Sequence record: MZ506873
Direction: 5' to 3' (one strand)
From: Escherichia phage KW1E_UTAR
DNA length: 45,161 nt
Made by a program: the position numbers and the translations under genes. Under the pieces are notes generated by a model, which searched no databases, had not been told where the DNA came from, and worked only from the letters and a program-made list of their open reading frames with translations. Positions 16,300-39,238 of the stretch are shown here, piece by piece. Every line of letters starts with the position of its first letter. Position 1 is the first letter of the stretch.

Positions 16300-16307
16300 G
16301 GGGCATC

Positions 16308-16514
16308 ATGTTAACGATTATTCTGTGGGTTCTCGGCGCTGTACTCACCTGGCGACTGTGTAGTCGCGACAGCACCACGCCGGAAGGCATCATGAAGTTC
16401 GCGCTGGGAATCCCTGAGCGAATCGCGGCTTCGGCGTTCTGGCCTGTCTGTGCTGCATACGTACTCTATGACGCGGTCATGGAGTGGATCGAAGAACGAC
16501 GCAATCGCCCGTAA
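16308..16514 (+). CDS. small membrane protein
   Basis: 68 aa, hydrophobic N-terminus MLTIILWVLGAVLTW. Confidence 0.45.
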   Translation: MLTIILWVLGAVLTWRLCSRDSTTPEGIMKFALGIPERIAASAFWPVCAAYVLYDAVMEWIEERRNRP

Positions 16515-16633
16515 TGGCGAAGCTGAAGTCCTGGGCGGTCAGGCATAAGTCGGGCCGCATATTGTTCATCACCAACAGCAAGCGGACCGCAATGAACCGC
16601 CTGTCGATGGGCTGGAAGGTAACGAGACAATGA
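16514..16633 (+). CDS. 39-aa basic micro-protein (tentative)
   Basis: Hand-translated MAKLKSWAVRHKSGRILFITNSKRTAMNRLSMGWKVTRQ; coupled by TAATG and ATGA overlaps. Confidence 0.3.
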   Translation: MAKLKSWAVRHKSGRILFITNSKRTAMNRLSMGWKVTRQ

Positions 16634-16803
16634 AGGCTCTGTTCTGGATCGTGGTTTTCGGTCTACTGTTCTTAATGGCTGGCCTTGAGTCAAACAGTCG
16701 CCGTGAACGTTGCGAAGTCGACATGGCAAAGCAGCTACACAGCGAAGCCATTTATCAGCATGGTGAATGTATTGTGAAAGGATGGGGCAAGGTTCGACTA
16801 TAG
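16630..16803 (+). CDS. 57-aa small membrane protein (tentative)
   Basis: Hand-translated MKALFWIVVFGLLFLMAGLE...; ATGA overlap with upstream micro-ORF. Confidence 0.35.
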   Translation: MKALFWIVVFGLLFLMAGLESNSRRERCEVDMAKQLHSEAIYQHGECIVKGWGKVRL

Positions 16804-16823
16804 CCACCAACCTGTAATAGAAT

Positions 16824-16856
16824 GGCCCCATTGATTTAACCTCATGGGGCCTTTTT
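16824..16856 (+). terminator. rho-independent terminator directly upstream of the terminase large subunit gene
   Basis: GGCCCCA-...-TGGGGCC hairpin followed by TTTTT; terminase ATG follows at 16858. Confidence 0.55.
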
Positions 16857-16857
16857 C

Positions 16858-32114: not shown

Positions 32115-32695
32115 AAACGATTCGACTATATGGACGACTGGGCGCGCTCTTTGGGCGCGTTCATCGCCTCCACATCGAAACCTGTTCCGAAGCTATCCGG
32201 GCGCTGTGCGTGACCGTTGACGGCTTCGAACAGTACCTTCGCGACAGTAAGAGCATGGGGATCAGGTTCGCGTGTTTTAAGGGGAAACGTAATGTCGGCG
32301 TGGACCAGTTAGCGCTGGGCTTGGGCGAAGAGGATTTTCGCATCGCGCCAGTTCTGGCAGGTGCGAAGAAGGGCGGCGTATTCCAGACCATTTTGGGCGC
32401 TGTCATGGTCGTGGCTGGCATCGTGGCGACGTTTATCCCCGGTGCACAGGCGGCGGCCCCTTACCTTATCGCTGGCGGGATCTCCACTATGGCTGGCGGC
32501 GTAATCCAGCTATTGACGCCACAACCGCCTGGAATGAGCCAGCGGCAGGATGCGGATAATAAGCCGTCATACGCGTTCGGGCAGCCAGTGAACACCACGG
32601 CTCAGGGGAACCCAGTCGGCATCCTCTGGGGGGAGCGTGAAATCGGCGGCGCTGTAATTGGCGCGGGCATTATTGCAAACGAAGTGAGGAACTAA
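32105..32695 (+). CDS. tail assembly protein (lambda I-like)
   Basis: Position between K-like and J-like genes; Gly/Ala-rich hydrophobic C-terminal region. Confidence 0.7.
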   Translation: MALKTIRLYGRLGALFGRVHRLHIETCSEAIRALCVTVDGFEQYLRDSKSMGIRFACFKGKRNVGVDQLALGLGEEDFRIAPVLAGAKKGGVFQTILGAVMVVAGIVATFIPGAQAAAPYLIAGGISTMAGGVIQLLTPQPPGMSQRQDADNKPSYAFGQPVNTTAQGNPVGILWGEREIGGAVIGAGIIANEVRN

Positions 32696-35600
32696 TGGAC
32701 CAGCCTGACAACATGAAGATCATCGAAAAGGCTACCGGGAAAGTAGTGCGCGGCGCGAAGGGTGGTGGCGGAAGCGTTCACACGCCAAAGGAAGACCCGG
32801 ACAGCCTGACAAGCCTGGCTGTCGTTCGTATGCTTCTGGCCCTTGGGGAAGGTGAGTTCGAATCGTTCGGCACTGATGACCTGAAGAAGCGCGTCATGCT
32901 GAACGGTACGCCGATCATGAACGCTGACGGGACCTATAACTTCAATGACGTCGTGATCGACTACCGCCCAGGAACATCTGGTCAATCCCACATTGCCGGG
33001 ATGCCAGCGGTCGAGTCTGAAACGGGTGTCGGCGTGGACCTGAAGGCCACGAACGAATGGACCCAGGCCCTGACAAACACGTCAATCGACGCTGTTCGCG
33101 TTCGAATCGGATTCCCCACCCTTCTACAGCAGAAGTCAAACGGGGACCGTGTAGGCTCGCGCATCGACTACACGATCTTTATCCGCAACCTGTCCGGCGG
33201 TGAGCTGTGGAAGAAGGACTTCAGCGCGATCGGCAAGACTACAACGCTGTATGAACGCGACCATCGAATCGACCTTCCACCATCACAGACAGGGTGGATT
33301 GTGGCTGTGCGACGTAACACGGCAGATAGCACAGACAGCAACCTGGTTAACCCGACTAAAATCCAGGCTTACACAGAGATCGTGGACCTTAAGCTGTCCT
33401 ACCCTAACACCGCGCTTTTGTACGTGGAGTTTAACGCGAAGCTTTTCCAGTCCATCCCGAAAGTGTCCATTAAGGCGAAGGGCCGCAAAATCCGCGTACC
33501 TCAGAACTATGACCCGATCACGCGGACGTATAACGGTTCGTGGGACGGCTCGTTCAAGTGGGCGTGGAGCAATAACCCGGCGTGGGTCTTCTTCGACTGC
33601 GCAACGGAACCGCGCTTCGCTCTGGGTAATAAGATTAACGCGTCCATGCTGGATAAGTGGGAACTGTACCGCATCGCGCAGCGTTGCGATCAGCTTGTCC
33701 CAGACGGTCGTGGCGGAGAGGAACCGCGCTACCTGTGCGACGTCTATATCCAGGGGCGTGAACAAGCCTGGACCGTCCTGAAGGACCTGGCGGCTATCTT
33801 CGCCGGAATGACGTTCTGGGGTGGCGGAATGCTGAACGTGCTTTCCGATCGTCCTGGCGATGTTAAGCAGGTGCTTACCCGCGCAAACGTGGTGAACGGT
33901 AAATTCCAGCGCCACGGCGGAAGCGGGCGAAACCGTCGCAGCGTGGCTAACGTGTCATGGGATGACCCGGCGAACCATTACCAGACGAACGTGGCTGTCA
34001 CGCCTATGATTGAGCTTGTGAACCGCTACGGATGGACTGAACCACTGGAACTGTCGGCGATCGGCTGTACTCGCTTGGGCGAAGCGCAGCGTCGCGGCAA
34101 GAACGCGCTTATCACCAACGTGACCGACGGGACCACGGACTTCAGCATCGGCATGGAAGGGATCGAATTTATGCCGGGCGACATCATCGGCATCGCCGAC
34201 GATACCTTCAGCGGCGGACAGTTCGGCGGACGTGTCGTTCGCGCAAATGGAGCGCGCTCTGTCATCCTCGATCGACCAGTGAACGAAGTTACGAAGGCGA
34301 ACGACTGGATCCTGTTCCGACAGGCCACAGACCCGGACGTTTCCCGCTTCCAGATCGCGTCCATTTCTGCTGACCGGAAGACCATCACCGTGACGACTGA
34401 CATCCTGAAAGGCGTAAACCCGTTCACGCCGTGGGTCGTCGACACTCAGGCGATCGCCATTACCCAGCATCGCGTGATCTCCGTTACCTGGAACGAGCAG
34501 GACAACACGTTCGACTGTGTGGTTCTGAAACATGACCCGTCAAAATATGACGCGGTTGACTTGGGCGCTCACCTGGATGACAGGCCGACCACCCTGATCC
34601 CGCCGGGATTCATGGAAGTGCCGAAGAACATCCAGATCACCAGTTACGAAATGCTCGTTCAGGGTACGCGTCAAACCGTCCTGCGAACCACTTGGGACAA
34701 GGTGAAGGGCGCGGTGGTGTACGATGCTCAGTGGCGTCGCGACAATAACGACTGGATTAACGTTCCGTCCACGTCCACAGAAGGATTCGAGGTTCAAGGG
34801 ATCTTCTCTGGCGATTACTGGGTTCGCGTTCGTGCGACAAACAGTTCTGGCGTGTCATCCCCGTGGGGGGAGGCAGTCAAGACCGGAATCACTGGTCGCG
34901 AAGGTGCTGTTCCTGTTCCGCAAGGTCTGAAGGCTACCAGTCAGAACTGGGGCATCAAATGGAACTGGCTAGCAGGTCGACAGGCTGACACGTCTGACAT
35001 CGCGTTCACCGAACTGGAACACTCAGTCAAGGGACTGTCCGGCTATGGCCCGTTCACGCTCCTGACGACCGTGGCCTTCCCTGCTGACTCGTTCGTTCAG
35101 GATGGTCTTGCCTTCGGTCAGTATATCCGCGTCCGCGCGCGTTACGTTGACCGCTTGGGGAATAAGTCAGACTGGTCGGCAGTGGTTGAGGGTAACGCTA
35201 ACGAAGACGCTGGCGACTACCTAGCTGGAATTACCGACGACCTGCTGACGTCGGAAGACGGCAAGGAGTTAATGAACCAGATTAACACCATGCCGGAAGC
35301 GGTCTATGAATCCATGCTGACCGACTATAAGACCCTTCTGGACGTGAAGGCTGGGGAAGGTAATCAGGTCGCCAGAATCCAAATCGCCTACAACGTGGCA
35401 GTGGAAGCGAACGAGGCAGTCGCGCAGCTTGAAACGCTGGTGGGTTCACGTATCGACGACGCTGAAGCGGCTATTCACACACTACAGACCGCCCAGGCAT
35501 CAATTGAGCAGTCATTCGCGCAGTATCAGCAGACGGTTAGCGCGAAATTCGGTGACGTTCAGGCGTCATTCGATGAACAGGGCAACCTGATCGACGCACA

Positions 35601-36252
35601 GGGGAATCGCATCACTCAGCAGGGCGTCAGAATTGACGATCAGGGCCGACTGATTGACGCGCAGGGTAACAGGATCGCGCAAGCTGAAGCGGCTATCAGC
35701 CAGAACCAGACGGCGATCGCGAACGCTAACCAGGCTCTTGCTACTTACAAGACTCAGGTGGCGGCCCAGTTTAACCAGCAGTCGGCAGCGATTGAGCAGA
35801 AGATGACGTCTCAGTTCACGGCGACAGGCGGTTCAGCGATCTACAGCCTGAAGGCTGGCGTGACCTATAACGGCGTTTACTATGACGCTGGTATGACGCT
35901 GTCAACCATCGCCAACGGCTCAGGAGTGAAGACCCGCGTAGCGTTCAAGGCTGACCAGTTTATCATCGCACACCCTACAACTGGCGGCCTGTTCGCGGCG
36001 TTCGCCGTGGTGGGGAACGATGTGTTCATTGATACGGCACGAATCAGGGCGGCGTCCATTTCGTTCGCACAGATCTCCGACACGCTTCAGTCGTCGAACT
36101 TTGCGTCCGGTCAGAACGGGTGGAGACTGCTGAAGAACGGCACGTTCGAAATTAACAGCGCCAGCGGTAACGGTCGCCTGTTAATCCAAAATAACCAGAT
36201 CCTTGTTTACGATGCATCTGGTCGCCTTCGTGTTCGTTTTGGTCTGTGGTAA
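32695..36252 (+). CDS. central tail fibre / host specificity protein (lambda J-like)
   Basis: 1185 aa; conserved J-like block NPAWVFFDCATEPRFALGNKI...RIAQRCDQLVPDGRGGEEPRY; position. Confidence 0.85.
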   Translation: MDQPDNMKIIEKATGKVVRGAKGGGGSVHTPKEDPDSLTSLAVVRMLLALGEGEFESFGTDDLKKRVMLNGTPIMNADGTYNFNDVVIDYRPGTSGQSHIAGMPAVESETGVGVDLKATNEWTQALTNTSIDAVRVRIGFPTLLQQKSNGDRVGSRIDYTIFIRNLSGGELWKKDFSAIGKTTTLYERDHRIDLPPSQTGWIVAVRRNTADSTDSNLVNPTKIQAYTEIVDLKLSYPNTALLYVEFNAKLFQSIPKVSIKAKGRKIRVPQNYDPITRTYNGSWDGSFKWAWSNNPAWVFFDCATEPRFALGNKINASMLDKWELYRIAQRCDQLVPDGRGGEEPRYLCDVYIQGREQAWTVLKDLAAIFAGMTFWGGGMLNVLSDRPGDVKQVLTRANVVNGKFQRHGGSGRNRRSVANVSWDDPANHYQTNVAVTPMIELVNRYGWTEPLELSAIGCTRLGEAQRRGKNALITNVTDGTTDFSIGMEGIEFMPGDIIGIADDTFSGGQFGGRVVRANGARSVILDRPVNEVTKANDWILFRQATDPDVSRFQIASISADRKTITVTTDILKGVNPFTPWVVDTQAIAITQHRVISVTWNEQDNTFDCVVLKHDPSKYDAVDLGAHLDDRPTTLIPPGFMEVPKNIQITSYEMLVQGTRQTVLRTTWDKVKGAVVYDAQWRRDNNDWINVPSTSTEGFEVQGIFSGDYWVRVRATNSSGVSSPWGEAVKTGITGREGAVPVPQGLKATSQNWGIKWNWLAGRQADTSDIAFTELEHSVKGLSGYGPFTLLTTVAFPADSFVQDGLAFGQYIRVRARYVDRLGNKSDWSAVVEGNANEDAGDYLAGITDDLLTSEDGKELMNQINTMPEAVYESMLTDYKTLLDVKAGEGNQVARIQIAYNVAVEANEAVAQLETLVGSRIDDAEAAIHTLQTAQASIEQSFAQYQQTVSAKFGDVQASFDEQGNLIDAQGNRITQQGVRIDDQGRLIDAQGNRIAQAEAAISQNQTAIANANQALATYKTQVAAQFNQQSAAIEQKMTSQFTATGGSAIYSLKAGVTYNGVYYDAGMTLSTIANGSGVKTRVAFKADQFIIAHPTTGGLFAAFAVVGNDVFIDTARIRAASISFAQISDTLQSSNFASGQNGWRLLKNGTFEINSASGNGRLLIQNNQILVYDASGRLRVRFGLW

Positions 36253-36256
36253 TATC

Positions 36257-36278
36257 AGCCCCTTCGGGGGCTTTTTTA
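36257..36278 (+). terminator. rho-independent terminator after the J-like gene
   Basis: AGCCCC-ttcg-GGGGCT hairpin followed by TTTTTT. Confidence 0.65.
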
Positions 36279-36290
36279 TTGGGGGTTATC

Positions 36291-36605
36291 ATGCCGCAAG
36301 GCTTGCAAGCTTGGGACGCGTCAGGGCGTATTGTGGTGGACCTGGGGGACTATTCGACAAGGTTCATCAGGTCACTGACTGTCAACCTACCAGCCAATCA
36401 GGTCGCCGTTAATGTGGCGGTGGCTGGCGTTACCGACACCGGACACTTCGCCGTAATCACGAAGGGAAACGAGTCGATCGTGTCTGGTCTGCTTATGACG
36501 TCGTTAACTGCCGTAACGAGGAACGGCGGGGTCTGGGTTATTGCCCTTGACGGGGCGCTGACTCTTGCCCGATCTGTAGTGGTCGACATTTACGCGTTTA
36601 CATAA
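36291..36605 (+). CDS. hypothetical protein, paralogue of the next gene (tail-associated?)
   Basis: N-terminus MPQGLQAWDASGRIVVD matches MSGFQVWNEAGALTID of the 36615 gene. Confidence 0.45.
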   Translation: MPQGLQAWDASGRIVVDLGDYSTRFIRSLTVNLPANQVAVNVAVAGVTDTGHFAVITKGNESIVSGLLMTSLTAVTRNGGVWVIALDGALTLARSVVVDIYAFT

Positions 36606-36614
36606 GGAGGGGGT

Positions 36615-37253
36615 ATGTCAGGTTTTCAGGTATGGAATGAGGCTGGCGCTCTGACCATTGATTCAGATAACAGGCACACGATCGTGACCGCTCAATCGAC
36701 GCCAGGGCTAACTGACGTCGGGGCATATGGCGGGGCCACGCCATTCGGAGACTGGAAGGAGTTAGGATATTTGACCCCGGCAGCGATGCCAGTCCAGAAC
36801 AATTTATACTGGGTCAGGCTCAACACTAACGCGTGGTGCTTCCCTGGCGCGTGGATGTTTAAGCCTGGAACATTCCAGATCATCACGACGTCAAGAACTC
36901 AAGCGCTTACTTCTGGAATTCTTGACGTTTATAATTCTGCTGGTGGCCTGATCTGGTCGGCTGTATCAGCCCAGAACATGCCACGAACAAGGCAGATTGT
37001 TTCCATCACTTCCGCCGCCGACAATGCTGTAGCAAGCGTGACGCCTGGGTTCAGTCCGTGGTTCCTTATGGGGGCCTGTCCGGGTAACTACTCATACGAC
37101 GGCGAAACGACTGGGTATTCAGGTTTAATTTTTAGATGGACGGGAACCCAGTTACAATATGCATGGGTTAGAAAGAACCAGAAGACATTCGCGGAAACGT
37201 TCGGCGGAAGAGGCGGATTAAGAATTCCACTGGCTGAATTCCCTGGGAGGTAG
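36615..37253 (+). CDS. hypothetical protein, paralogue of the previous gene (tail-associated?)
   Basis: Strong RBS AAGGAGGGGG; shared N-terminal motif with the 36291 gene. Confidence 0.55.
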   Translation: MSGFQVWNEAGALTIDSDNRHTIVTAQSTPGLTDVGAYGGATPFGDWKELGYLTPAAMPVQNNLYWVRLNTNAWCFPGAWMFKPGTFQIITTSRTQALTSGILDVYNSAGGLIWSAVSAQNMPRTRQIVSITSAADNAVASVTPGFSPWFLMGACPGNYSYDGETTGYSGLIFRWTGTQLQYAWVRKNQKTFAETFGGRGGLRIPLAEFPGR

Positions 37254-37259
37254 ATCAGC

Positions 37260-39110
37260 ATGGCACAAGGCACAATCAAAGTAACAAACGGTAGCGTCGA
37301 CGTTGTCGGGACCGGGACGGCATTCACCAGCATGAAGGCTGGCAGCTTCCTAACGTTCGTCCTGACTGGCGTGGCGTACACTGTAGCGATCGACAGCATT
37401 CAAAGCGCCACAGCGCTGAAGCTGGCGGTCAAGTTCGACGGACCGACTACCAGCGGCGTGGCGTTCAATGAATCACCTGTCGGCTCTATGGCGCTGGCGA
37501 CGATGGGCGTCACCGTTCAGGCCCAGAAAGCGCTTCGCATGATGATCGCCGACCAAACGAACTGGCGAGAAGTGTTCAGCAATAAGCAGACCATCACTGT
37601 AACCCTCCCAGACGGAACGCAGTATTCCGGCTATTCTTGGGGCTACATTAGCGACCTGCTGAAGGAAATTAACATCCCGGCGCTGGAGGGCATTCGCGAC
37701 CAGACGATCGCGGCTCGCAACCAGGCGCAGACCTACGCGACTAACGCTTCGAACTCAGCGACGTCAGCAAACACGGCGAACACTGGCGCACAGGCGGCGA
37801 AGACGGCAGCAGAGACAGCCAGGACAGGGGCACAGACGGCGCAGCAGGGAGCGGCAGCCTCAGCCACCACAGCAGGGGCAGCGGCTACCACAGCCACCAA
37901 TAAAGCCACAGAAGCCACTAACCAGGCGGCGCTGGCGAAGCAGTACGCCGACAGCGTCAACCCGGCTAACCTGCTGGCGAAGGCGAACAACCTGTCAGAC
38001 GTGCCGGACAAGGCCGCAGCAAGAACAAACTTGCAGATCAACAGATTCAACCAGGACTCAGCGACAGAAACAAGAGTGCTTTCTGGTGATGGTTCTCAGG
38101 CAGTGATTGTTTCAAATAGTGCGGCGTGGGGTGTTTATAAATTTGGATCTGGATGGATTCCGCTTGGGGTTGGTCAAGGTGGAACTGGATCTACATCGGC
38201 GGCTGGAGCGAGATCCAATCTTGGGGCCATTGGTGTTGGAGAGTATGGCTGGGGTGCTAACTCTATTCCAACGTGGGACCTTAGCGGGAACGTTGCTGCT
38301 GGGCTTTACAATACAGGGATTAACAATAGCGTATGGGGTAGCACTGGGGGATTAACACTTCATATGCCTCAGGGTGGAAATTGGGGTTTTGATATCTGCG
38401 TTCCTGCTGGTGGTCAGCCTGGGCTTGCTGTTAGAACCTATAACGGATCTGGTGCTGGTCTTAACTTTGTTAAGATGATGCACGCGCAGACCGGATCGAA
38501 TGCTGTTATCACGACAAACGCAAACTCAATTCAGGAGCCGGGATTGAGTAATGGTATTGTTCAGCACACAGCATCAAACAACATGCCAACCACTGCAACA
38601 AACAACTATAACTATTTGCAAGTTATTAGCAGGGGGCTTGGTGACAATGCGGCGTGGCAGCAATTCGCCCTGCCTTACGCAACGCAAACGGACGCTGGGA
38701 GGATGTTCTTTAGGGGGTGGAACACAAACACATTCTCACCATGGAAAGAGATATCAACAGTTCCTGTGTCCGATGAAAGACTAAAGGATGTAAAGGGTAA
38801 TCTTAATGTTGAGTGTTCACTCGATAACATAAACAGAATGGAGTTCAAGATCTTCAAGTACCTTAACGACTCCCCTGAAAGATCTGCGCGGCGTGGATTA
38901 ATCTCGCAACAGATAAGATGGATTGATCGTGAGTACGTGAAGGAAATCGGCGGTTATTATCATCTTGACGAGACTCCGCTAATGCTTGACGGTCTTGCGG
39001 CAATCAAGGCACTTCGCGCCCGCGACGTTGAAAATAAGGGGCGGATCGAAAAACTGGAAAGTGATATTGAAGAGTTAAAATTGCTGCTTGCTTCCATGGC
39101 GGCTAAATAA
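37260..39110 (+). CDS. tail fibre protein with C-terminal intramolecular chaperone (peptidase S74-like) domain
   Basis: Ala/Thr/Gln-rich repeat shaft, Gly-rich distal domain, C-terminal SDERLK...coiled-coil module starting at about 38769. Confidence 0.8.
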   Translation: MAQGTIKVTNGSVDVVGTGTAFTSMKAGSFLTFVLTGVAYTVAIDSIQSATALKLAVKFDGPTTSGVAFNESPVGSMALATMGVTVQAQKALRMMIADQTNWREVFSNKQTITVTLPDGTQYSGYSWGYISDLLKEINIPALEGIRDQTIAARNQAQTYATNASNSATSANTANTGAQAAKTAAETARTGAQTAQQGAAASATTAGAAATTATNKATEATNQAALAKQYADSVNPANLLAKANNLSDVPDKAAARTNLQINRFNQDSATETRVLSGDGSQAVIVSNSAAWGVYKFGSGWIPLGVGQGGTGSTSAAGARSNLGAIGVGEYGWGANSIPTWDLSGNVAAGLYNTGINNSVWGSTGGLTLHMPQGGNWGFDICVPAGGQPGLAVRTYNGSGAGLNFVKMMHAQTGSNAVITTNANSIQEPGLSNGIVQHTASNNMPTTATNNYNYLQVISRGLGDNAAWQQFALPYATQTDAGRMFFRGWNTNTFSPWKEISTVPVSDERLKDVKGNLNVECSLDNINRMEFKIFKYLNDSPERSARRGLISQQIRWIDREYVKEIGGYYHLDETPLMLDGLAAIKALRARDVENKGRIEKLESDIEELKLLLASMAAK

Positions 39111-39139
39111 AAAAAGGGGCCGAAAGGCCCCTATTTTTT
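39109..39139. terminator. bidirectional rho-independent terminator
   Basis: A7-AGGGGCC-gaaa-GGCCCCT-ATTTTTT between convergent tail fibre (+) and replication-block (-) transcription. Confidence 0.65.
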
Positions 39140-39238
39140 ACCGCTCTTTCTGTGCTTCCATTCCGCCCAGAACACGAATCCCATTCCAACGAAGTACGCC
39201 GCGAACAGCCACGCCGTAACAATCAAGAACGGCTTCAT
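39131..39238 (-). CDS. 35-aa hydrophobic micro-protein (MKPFLIVTAWLFAAYFVGMGFVFWAEWKHRKSGKK)
   Basis: Hand-translated; ATGA overlap with the stop of the HTH gene; stop codon inside the terminator hairpin. Confidence 0.35.
   Translation of the reverse strand: MKPFLIVTAWLFAAYFVGMGFVFWAEWKHRKSGKK

Follow-up and report, generated by a model that had tools for sequence, protein, structure and literature searches.

The lateral (side) tail fibre gene of Escherichia phage KW1E_UTAR (sequence record MZ506873; 37260..39110, plus strand, an ORF of 616 codons) is chimeric with a probability that we put at roughly 85%. According to this reading, residues 1-255 of the fibre belong to the phage's own lineage, and residues ~258-616 are a cassette from a lower-GC pool of fibres of T1-like and T5-like enterobacterial siphoviruses. 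The cassette would have been gained by recombination and would carry three parts, namely a small linker unit, the rare receptor-binding core and the S74 chaperone.

The window analysed, which is the whole stretch of 45,161 nucleotides, represents a Dhillonvirus-like siphovirus of ~45 kb; its nearest relatives are phages of Klebsiella sp. M5a1. By megablast the phage matched KLB16 and KLB22 only; no publications on the KLB or M5a1 phages turned up in a literature search. KLB19, a T1-like phage of 52.6 kb, has the M5a1 host as well. The fibre gene lies 3′ of gpJ and of two small ORFs that form the ‘bona fide RBP’ locus (ORF map and Pfam), and is convergent with the genes for HTH, SSB, Erf and exonuclease proteins (gpJ domains and HTH by Pfam). 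KLB22, KLB16, L004 and L009 share this synteny. A single fibre gene is present, and no LtfA or LtfC homologue was found near it in the ORF and Pfam map. The N-terminus of the fibre matches PHROG 1980 ‘tail fiber protein’ at E 1e-45 as well as Dhillonvirus lateral tail fibres. By tblastn, 192 phage records, most of them Dhillonvirus, matched residues 1-155 or 1-265 with 50-61% identity; the fibre has the homologous N-terminal attachment region of the Dhillonvirus type. None of the four fibres searched had an NCBIfam match.

Codon composition changes within the fibre gene

An earlier note on this DNA had claimed that the gene switches to AT-rich third positions at about 38070. The shift is real, but its true site is ~15-40 nt further upstream. 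Maximum likelihood places the GC3 change-point behind codon 266, at 38058 (2-log-likelihood support interval 38013-38070). GC3 is 0.718 over the first 266 codons and 0.431 over the last 350 codons, and the LLR of 25.7 was reached by 0 of 5000 permutations (largest 11.5). The GC3 profile proposed in the earlier note, in which a missing shift would have counted against an exchange, therefore shows a large and significant one. At the change-point neither GC1 nor GC2 shifts, which makes the effect synonymous. GC3s was 0.70 in the proximal fibre, 0.41 in the distal fibre and 0.67 in 17 other genes, and synonymous usage is altered for most amino acids in the distal fibre. The background GC3 is 0.687 ± 0.066 (327 windows of 100 codons), and 10 of the 12 windows with the lowest GC3 of the whole 45 kb are distal fibre.

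All five AT-rich codons that had been named as prominent are enriched in the distal fibre compared to the background: GGT (19/44 versus 128/584), GTT (14/20 versus 98/500), GCT (11/32 versus 171/700), TTT (4/10 versus 29/253) and AAT (11/31 versus 63/334). CTT (16/29 Leu codons) and AGA (8/17 Arg codons) are also enriched distally. The low GC3 extends to the stop codon of the fibre gene, which agrees with the claim that the AT-rich usage continues through the C-terminal chaperone, and the downstream genes are back at 0.65-0.71. A candidate second change-point within the distal block (~residue 404) was not significant (LLR 5.97, permutation p = 0.10). Elsewhere in the window, another low-GC3 ORF (16466..16831, minus strand) had no family match and is probably spurious.

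Boundaries and modules of the replaced block

Four sibling phages (L004, L009, KLB16 and KLB22) with flanks of 80-95% nucleotide identity were compared with the phage. Homology is lost at 38002-38036 in L004, L009 and KLB16 and already at 37582 in KLB22, which shares residues 1-108 only. It returns in all four siblings at 39102-39106, just 5′ of the stop codon and a common terminator. Since breakpoints with four siblings are present at both ends, the replaced block coincides with the AT-rich block. In base-level alignments the junctions are sharp, one on the ARTN codons and the other at the stop codon and terminator. The siblings are near-identical through the ...AARTN codons, and divergence is total from ~38031, again upstream of 38070. 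At the protein level, residues 1-255 show 77-100% identity to L009, L004 and KLB16 (90-100% to L009 and L004), whereas residues 256-616 compared with all four siblings are at noise level, with 23-50% identity over partial coverage. The five close genomes carry five different distal ends with at least four unrelated receptor-binding cores. All siblings have foreign distal ends too, so the distal end of the fibre is a hot-spot of recurrent exchange rather than the site of a one-off event.

Module A (residues 1-255; 37260..38024, plus strand) is the resident virion-attachment N-terminus with an Ala/Thr/Gln-rich shaft. Its GC3 of 0.71 is at genome level, and its nucleotide identity is 91-94% to L004 and L009 and 79% to KLB16. 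The left crossover motif NLSDVPDKAAARTNL (residues 244-258; 37989..38033, plus strand), within which the divergence of the siblings begins, is present in 19 of the 132 retrieved fibre proteins, including that of the T1-like phage Henu7 (P0042). Module B (residues 256-328; 38025..38243, plus strand) is a small beta-rich unit with the C-terminal end GGTGSTSAAGARSNLG and a GC3 of 0.36. It is best matched by the T5-like fibre P0020 (51% amino acid identity), and the equivalent unit in the sibling L004 reaches only 43%. Module C (residues 329-503; 38244..38768, plus strand; GC3 0.46), the presumed receptor-binding core, shows 70% amino acid identity to the T5-like fibres P0020 and Eos88 and 67% to the T1-like fibre P0019. 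The intramolecular chaperone (Peptidase_S74 / ICA; residues 504-616; 38769..39107, plus strand; GC3 0.47) is 78% identical to P0019 and 71% to EP23. With different best relatives for B, C and the chaperone, the distal block is itself composite by ancestry. Comparing the two halves of the fibre separately, as had been suggested, thus yielded different closest relatives for each.

The core is rare. At full length it was found in two clusters only in an exhaustive HMMER search of 1.84 billion representative proteins; its profile had one distant match in IMG/VR (43% over half of the core), and no relatives were found in 185,579 GTDB species-representative genomes. No sequence match to the core was detected in the PDB, including the solved bullet domain of T5 pb1. 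Pyocin fibres gave weak profile matches only (6ct8, E 8.6e-5; 6cl6, E 0.004).

The C-terminal domain was confirmed as an S74 intramolecular chaperone by Pfam, by its Ser504/Lys509 dyad and by its fold. PF13884 matched with 23.7 bits (gathering cut-off 22; E 6.1e-5), aligning residues 504-554 with positions 1-51 of 58 of the profile. The dyad was read from the translation as S504-D-E-R-L-K509, with Ser504 encoded at 38769-38771 and Lys509 at 38784-38786. SDERLK had been expected at about 38769; residue 504 is encoded at exactly this position, and PF13884 begins there. The S-x4-K spacing is the same as that of Ser1264/Lys1269 in T5 pb1 (PMC4690869), and the Ser/Lys motif is kept in all SDERLK-type relatives. 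When the distal 361 residues were modelled as a monomer with AF2, the core had an unusable pLDDT of 26-46 and the chaperone part alone was interpreted (model residues ~250-361; pLDDT 72-93; helix at 316-360). Foldseek matched the chaperone model to 7dc3 (MyRF ICA) with an E-value of 1.2e-4, a probability of 1.0 and a TM (target) of 0.60-0.64; the rmsd was 2.8 Å over 122 columns. The chaperone is located within the fibre polypeptide and is not a separate gene. Judging from T5 pb1 and the endosialidase, it would drive trimerisation of the distal domain and then cleave itself at Ser504 using Lys509, thereby exposing the tip. By analogy, the tip is probably glycan-binding; it would bind a surface glycan (O-antigen or capsule) in reversible primary adsorption and in this way determine host range.

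On the right side, a terminator scan of both strands found a bidirectional intrinsic terminator, AGGGGCC-GAAA-GGCCCCT, at 39115..39132. The hairpin, preceded by an A-run and followed by a T-run, marks the right-hand border of the exchanged cassette. The same hairpin follows the fibre stop codon of the T1-like L006; there a G:C pair is A:T instead, a compensatory change that is consistent with a maintained hairpin. We propose that the left crossover took place in the conserved linker motif NLSDVxD..ARTNL and that the right crossover took place in a stretch comprising the final codons, the stop codon and the conserved bidirectional terminator. Crossovers at the linker motif and at the stop codon and terminator would make a complete self-folding distal end exchangeable in frame. 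A more far-reaching and rather doubtful idea is that the distal end is a portable cassette that moves among Dhillon-like, T1-like and T5-like siphoviruses via two conserved anchors and carries a rare core for an uncharacterised Klebsiella/Enterobacter glycan. The left anchor may be the NLSD..ARTNL linker motif, and the right one the stop codon with the bidirectional terminator. If the terminator acts as a recombination anchor across families, it would provide a definite rule by which fibres are swapped, both in nature and by engineering.

Low-GC relatives and the origin of the cassette

Modules B, C and the chaperone show 51-78% amino acid identity to fibres of T1-like and T5-like phages, with a range of 54-78% for the chaperone. 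The T5-like fibres P0020 and Eos88 align with residues 309/327-613 at 62-63%. L006 is T1-like, L008 carries the T5 hallmark genes pb9, pb4 and LtfC, and Eos is classified in Markadamsvirinae. Measured on loci of 9-21 kb rather than on whole genomes, the GC content is 0.466 for L006 and 0.419 for L008, compared to 0.552 here. The GC3 of the relatives' fibres is 0.43 (L006), 0.32 (L008) and 0.28 (Eos). As expected for horizontal acquisition, the compositional discontinuity coincides with the homology breakpoints and with incongruent nearest relatives. The suggestion that the receptor-binding end came from a lower-GC phage is therefore supported by where the breakpoints lie, by the incongruence of the relatives and by the lower GC of the carriers, as a statement about a gene pool and not about an identified source.

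A donor with near-identical sequence was not found: the best matches reached 70.8% nucleotide identity (846 nt) and 62-78% amino acid identity, and nothing closer was present in INPHARED, IMG/VR, the GTDB genomes or the protein searches of 5.8 billion clusters and 1.84 billion representatives. The distal half had no megablast match in 50,697 phage records, and the distal protein had chaperone-level matches only in IMG/VR, to EP23 and IME18. Because the best matches are only 62-70% identical in amino acids (core) and 70.8% in nucleotides, the transfer must be old or else have come from an unsampled phage. We infer the direction of transfer from composition alone. The distal GC3 of 0.43 equals that of the T1-like fibre and is well above that of T5-like fibres, so that the source is not assignable to one family; this value fits partial amelioration and a moderately low-GC donor alike.

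The searches also bear on an origin of the cassette from a bacterial chromosome, for example from an Enterobacter or Klebsiella prophage or tailocin encoding a ‘pyocin knob domain-containing S74 family peptidase’. In the initial protein search with residues 256-503 alone, the only named relatives were Enterobacter chromosomal proteins (15 remote matches, on contigs up to 5 Mb; the word index of this search let Eos88 escape), and the weak match to the R2 pyocin fibre 6ct8 lies just upstream of the chaperone. However, the Enterobacter proteins cover only ~residues 418-593 at 50% identity, compared to 67-70% at full length in T1-like and T5-like phages, and the species-representative genomes hold no relative of the core. 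Additionally, Enterobacter and Klebsiella chromosomes have ~55-57% GC and would not yield a GC3 of 0.43. We consider such an origin improbable.

It seems slightly less probable still that the distal end is a long-term resident whose AT-rich third positions are kept by selection, for example as slow or rare codons that aid co-translational folding and trimerisation. Some distal dip in GC3 is indeed seen in every fibre examined (among them KLB16, KLB22, L004 and, mildly, EP23), and SDERLK-type chaperones never exceed a GC3 of 0.50 in any carrier. Nevertheless, siblings with 91-95% identity in each flank carry unrelated sequence in between, which is incompatible with a resident block. The SDWNAK-type S74 chaperones of the siblings have a GC3 of 0.64-0.66, which speaks against selection for AT-rich codons, since the S74 fold does not itself force them. 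Moreover, the GC3 of homologous modules climbs with the GC content of the carrier genome (0.34 to 0.41 to 0.47-0.50), which points to drift and amelioration and not to a fixed optimum. An assembly artefact, in which a chimeric contig joins two co-occurring phages within a common fibre motif, is very unlikely. The junction does lie on a motif common to the fibre genes of different phages, a repeat where assemblers can switch, but the reading frame runs on unbroken, and a return to the original lineage at 39102 would require false joins at both junctions. Four independent siblings, including the isolate genomes KLB16 and KLB22, have identical cassette boundaries around different inserts, and total length and synteny fit a complete 45-kb genome. 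Acquisition from the lower-GC T1-like/T5-like fibre pool is thus the reading that we prefer.

Comparison with known fibre systems

The exchange described here would be a base-resolved example of a siphovirus changing its primary host-recognition specificity by an in-frame swap of a self-contained distal end. For swapping host range in Klebsiella phages, the junctions at ~38031 and 39102-39110 could be used directly as splice points. The result also warns annotators that fibre function is not transferable from the nearest genome relatives.

With the S74/ICA domains of K1F endosialidase, phi29 gp12 and the MyRF ICA, the chaperone shares the Pfam match, the Ser-x4-Lys spacing and the MyRF fold, and no differences were detected at these three levels. 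The long C-terminal helix of the model is consistent with the trimeric coiled coil of these domains. The best overall relative of core and chaperone is the T1-like (Drexlerviridae-type) fibre P0019 on L006, with 66% amino acid identity over residues 295-616 and 70.8% nucleotide identity over 38301-39141. Its stop codon is followed by the same terminator hairpin, and at 0.43 the GC3 of this fibre is no different from that of the distal part here. On the other hand, P0019 has another N-terminal anchor, a longer shaft (794 aa) and a different arrangement of neighbouring genes.

The T5-like distal fibre subunits (Eos gp88 and the metagenomic P0020) are collinear with the fibre from ~residue 309/327 to the end and share the SDERLK Ser/Lys start of the chaperone and linker motifs (GGTG...A[RK]xNLG). 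For T5 pb1, chaperone-assisted trimerisation and self-cleavage are established (PMC4690869). In contrast to the branched T5-like fibre encoded by two genes, the distal part is here fused to a Dhillon-type N-terminus in one gene; the fibre has a module in common with the LtfA/LtfB and LtfC architecture but is not a member of it. The distal GC3 of 0.43 also differs from the 0.28-0.32 of T5-like fibres.

The lateral fibre locus of Dhillonvirus (EP23, JLBYU60 and the BASEL phages KarlBarth and TheodorHerzl) occupies the same genome position, and its fibres have a homologous N-terminal region (50-62% amino acid identity) and a C-terminal S74 chaperone. The JLBYU60 fibre has been described with a carbohydrate-binding tip and an autocatalytic chaperone (PMC12309495). 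In Dhillonvirus, the similarity of lateral fibres collapses just past the 5′ end of the gene, and likewise in Drexlerviridae and Markadamsvirinae (PMC8594841). Unlike Dhillonvirus, the phage described here belongs to a Klebsiella-infecting sister group, its distal core is unrelated to any retrieved Dhillonvirus fibre, and its GC3 drop (0.72 to 0.43) is far stronger than that in EP23 (~0.70 to 0.56). A foreign, cleanly delimited outer 60% of the fibre gene is an ordinary and well-known route of host-range change, and the same pattern has already been described for the lateral fibres of Dhillonvirus, T1-like and T5-like phages. It is textbook knowledge that lateral fibres are mosaics whose N-termini are conserved, so the current understanding of these systems is unchanged.

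A compositional and homology break in the fibre gene

The lateral tail fibre ORF (37260..39110, plus strand, 616 codons) of this ~45-kb siphovirus genome changes its codon usage along its length, the finding lying in the 3′ 60% of the gene. In a sliding profile, the first 240 codons gave GC3 values of ~0.70-0.85 and those from codon 260 on gave 0.23-0.50, and GC1 and GC2 remained steady where GC3 falls. The maximum-likelihood GC3 change-point was located after codon 266 (38058, support interval 38013-38070), with GC3 of 0.718 before and 0.431 after it. The LLR of 25.7 was reached in none of 5000 permutations (maximum 11.5). Background GC3, determined from 327 windows of 100 codons in the other long ORFs, was 0.687 ± 0.066, and 10 of the 12 lowest-GC3 windows of the genome lie in the distal fibre. 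An earlier note had placed a switch to AT-rich usage at about 38070; the shift is significant and the position correct in substance, with the actual break a few tens of bases further upstream. All five codons that it named are enriched in the distal block compared to background: GGT (43% vs 22% of Gly codons), GTT (70% vs 20% of Val codons), GCT (34% vs 24%), TTT (40% vs 11%) and AAT (35% vs 19%). CTT and AGA are likewise enriched. Since the genes downstream have a GC3 of 0.65-0.71, the low-GC3 block stops at the gene end, and it includes, as the note had also proposed, the entire chaperone starting with SDERLK at residue 504 (38769).

Breakpoints of homology were determined with four phages of the same lineage. 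KLB22 and KLB16 are isolates; L004 and L009 are metagenomic contigs whose synteny is identical and whose J protein has 1185 aa. Moving rightwards, homology is lost at 37582 (KLB22), 38002 (L004), 38025 (KLB16) and 38036 (L009), and returns at 39102-39106 in all four. In base-level alignments the siblings are near-identical through the codons for NLSDVPDKAAARTN and fully divergent from ~38031; they reconverge at the last one or two codons, the stop codon and the terminator. Because the sibling breakpoints bracket the same stretch, the replaced segment coincides with the AT-rich one. The bidirectional terminator (AGGGGCC-GAAA-GGCCCCT, 39115-39132, both strands) is kept in all four siblings, and the cassette may use it as its anchor for recombination on the right. 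The same hairpin also follows the fibre stop codon on L006, an unrelated T1-like contig (~12390-12410), where the stem carries a compensatory change from G:C to A:T (GGAGCC...GGCTCC).

The distal fibre end differs in each sibling (L004 10001-11884; L009 10001-11944; the two isolates, loci L002 5001-6539 and L003 5001-6661). L004 and L009 have one chaperone type in common, SDWNAK, and KLB22 carries an SDINLK type with a GC3 of 0.44. The KLB16 fibre has no S74 chaperone; instead, a separate 78-aa ORF lies downstream of the gene.

Relatives of the modules and probable low-GC origin

The modules of the fibre have different relatives. Residues 1-108 (A1) are 94-100% identical in all four siblings and 62% in the Dhillonvirus EP23, vs 25-31% over partial coverage in T1-like and T5-like fibres. 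Residues 109-255 (A2) are 77-93% identical in three of the four siblings and 27-44% in other phages. Module B (256-328) is best matched by the T5-like fibre P0020 (51%), and module C, the presumed receptor-binding core (329-503), by P0020 and Eos gp88 (70%) and by the T1-like fibre P0019 (67%). The chaperone (504-616) is closest to P0019 (78%), followed by EP23 (71%), T1-like IME18 (67%) and T5-like phages (54%). Siblings match B, C and the chaperone only at noise level (23-50% over partial coverage). The two parts thus have separate closest relatives, the siblings proximally and T1-like and T5-like fibres distally. No protein in a database of 5.8 billion clusters spans the whole fibre; the best matches cover 40-53%. 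P0019 is carried by a 52-kb contig with the T1-like phages Ec_L1, NBD2 and KLB19 as nearest relatives. The P0020 phage is T5-like because homologues of pb9, pb4 and LtfC adjoin the gene, and Eos is classified in the Markadamsvirinae.

These carriers support the claim that the distal fibre came from lower-GC phages. GC, measured for the carriers on loci of 9-21 kb, is 0.466 for L006, which carries P0019, and 0.419 for L008, which carries P0020, and Eos, vs 0.552 for the window; their fibre GC3 is 0.43, 0.32 and 0.28, respectively. We infer the polarity of transfer from this composition. A low GC3 intrinsic to such domains is ruled out by the SDWNAK chaperones of L004 and L009, whose GC3 of 0.64-0.66 is the genome's own level. 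The GC3 of SDERLK chaperones is 0.34-0.36 in T5-like, 0.36-0.41 in T1-like and 0.47-0.50 in Dhillon-like genomes, a small sample that fits a module circulating mainly in low-GC phages and drifting to the composition of its current genome.

The core itself is rare. An exhaustive HMMER search of 1.84 billion representative proteins gave 7 matches at E ≤ 0.001, only P0020 and P0019 being full-length; in IMG/VR a single match, distant and partial, was found, and a scan of 185,579 species-representative genomes found no relative. Core relatives are so few and distant that no donor can be named, and the transfer was either old or from unsampled phages. The AF2 model of the core (pLDDT 26-46) is too low for a fold. 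Remote Enterobacter relatives named 'pyocin knob domain' by NCBI and weak pyocin-fibre profile matches are leads only.

Surroundings of the fibre locus

The structural module is 92.8% identical in nucleotide sequence to Klebsiella phage vB_KM5a1-KLB22 and ~80% to vB_KM5a1-KLB16, with no further extended match among the phage records searched. Upstream of the fibre ORF lie a lambda-J-like tip protein (Pfam FNIII-A_GpJ, Phage-tail_3, Phage_Tail_Tip) and then two small plus-strand ORFs (36246..36605 and 36615..37253; PHROG 7961 and 4524, function unknown; DUF8377 on sibling contigs); an HTH regulator and recombination genes are convergent on the opposite strand. Dhillonvirus-type phages have their lateral tail fibre gene in this position. 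Matches to residues 1-255 are PHROG 1980 'tail fiber protein' and lateral fibres in 192 phage records, the majority of them Dhillonvirus. Residues 1-70 (37260-37469) also align with the same residues of PDB 23gd_B ('Distal tail protein gp20', E 2.4e-5) and match PHROG 9922 'minor tail protein' and, in a profile search, an F2-pyocin side fibre (25ve), which suggests a common virion-attachment domain.

The two small ORFs are the counterparts of what has been discussed for Dhillonvirus as the 'bona fide RBP locus'; GC3 is slightly low (0.55) in the second of them. Within the gpJ gene (32695..36252), homology to KLB22 is missing for ~380 nt (35345-35722), with L004 and L009 continuous over this stretch; it forms a further, smaller patch of mosaicism in the host-recognition region. 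Directly past the terminator, a 35-aa hydrophobic ORF (MKPFLIVTAWLFAAYFVGMGFVFWAEWKHRKSGKK, 39131-39238, minus strand) is kept in the siblings and has no PHROG match; its KLB16 homologue is annotated as a transmembrane protein, and the label 'copper-transporting ATPase' of the KLB22 homologue is surely a mis-annotation. Elsewhere, 558 nt amid plus-strand genes (16300-16857) contain a sole ORF (16466..16831, minus strand, GC3 0.42, no PHROG match) that is probably spurious. The stretch may be non-coding, either regulatory or a genome end.

Chaperone, proposed exchange and known systems

The C-terminal 113 residues are an S74/ICA intramolecular chaperone. A Pfam Peptidase_S74 match above threshold starts at residue 504, the AF2 model is confident with a long terminal helix, Foldseek returned the MyRF ICA domain with probability 1.0, and a profile match to the C-terminus of the solved L-shaped tail fibre 8hqz_d (E 3.5e-12) agrees. 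The spacing of Ser504/Lys509 is that of the catalytic pair Ser1264/Lys1269 in T5 pb1 (PMC4690869). On the model of pb1 and endosialidase, the chaperone would nucleate trimer folding, then cleave at Ser504 and depart. The mature tip, ending at residue 503, would bind surface polysaccharide as a reversible primary receptor; O-antigen has been proposed as the target of the lateral fibres of these phage groups (PMC8594841).

Recombination probably occurred on the left at a short conserved motif in the linker, carried by 19 of 132 retrieved fibres, from several phage types, and on the right at the stop-plus-terminator region, which the T1-like contig L006 also has. Genes for an Erf-family annealase and an exonuclease (Pfam ERF and DUF3799 on sibling contigs) adjoin the fibre gene and, speculatively, could promote such short-homology exchange, as is familiar from Rad52-like phage recombinases.

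The phenomenon itself is not new. For Dhillonvirus, Maffei et al. described a loss of similarity shortly after the 5′ end of the lateral tail fibre gene, and they reported comparable diversity for this locus in Drexlerviridae and Markadamsvirinae (PMC8594841); fibres shared across families along with their chaperones are documented too (PMC10579305). The fibre studied here is an unrecorded chimera with a rare core module and a clear, well-delimited instance. It shares with Dhillonvirus-type phages the lateral-fibre locus and a homologous N-terminus. The EP23 fibre shows only a mild distal dip in GC3, so a break as strong as the present one is no general feature of the gene.
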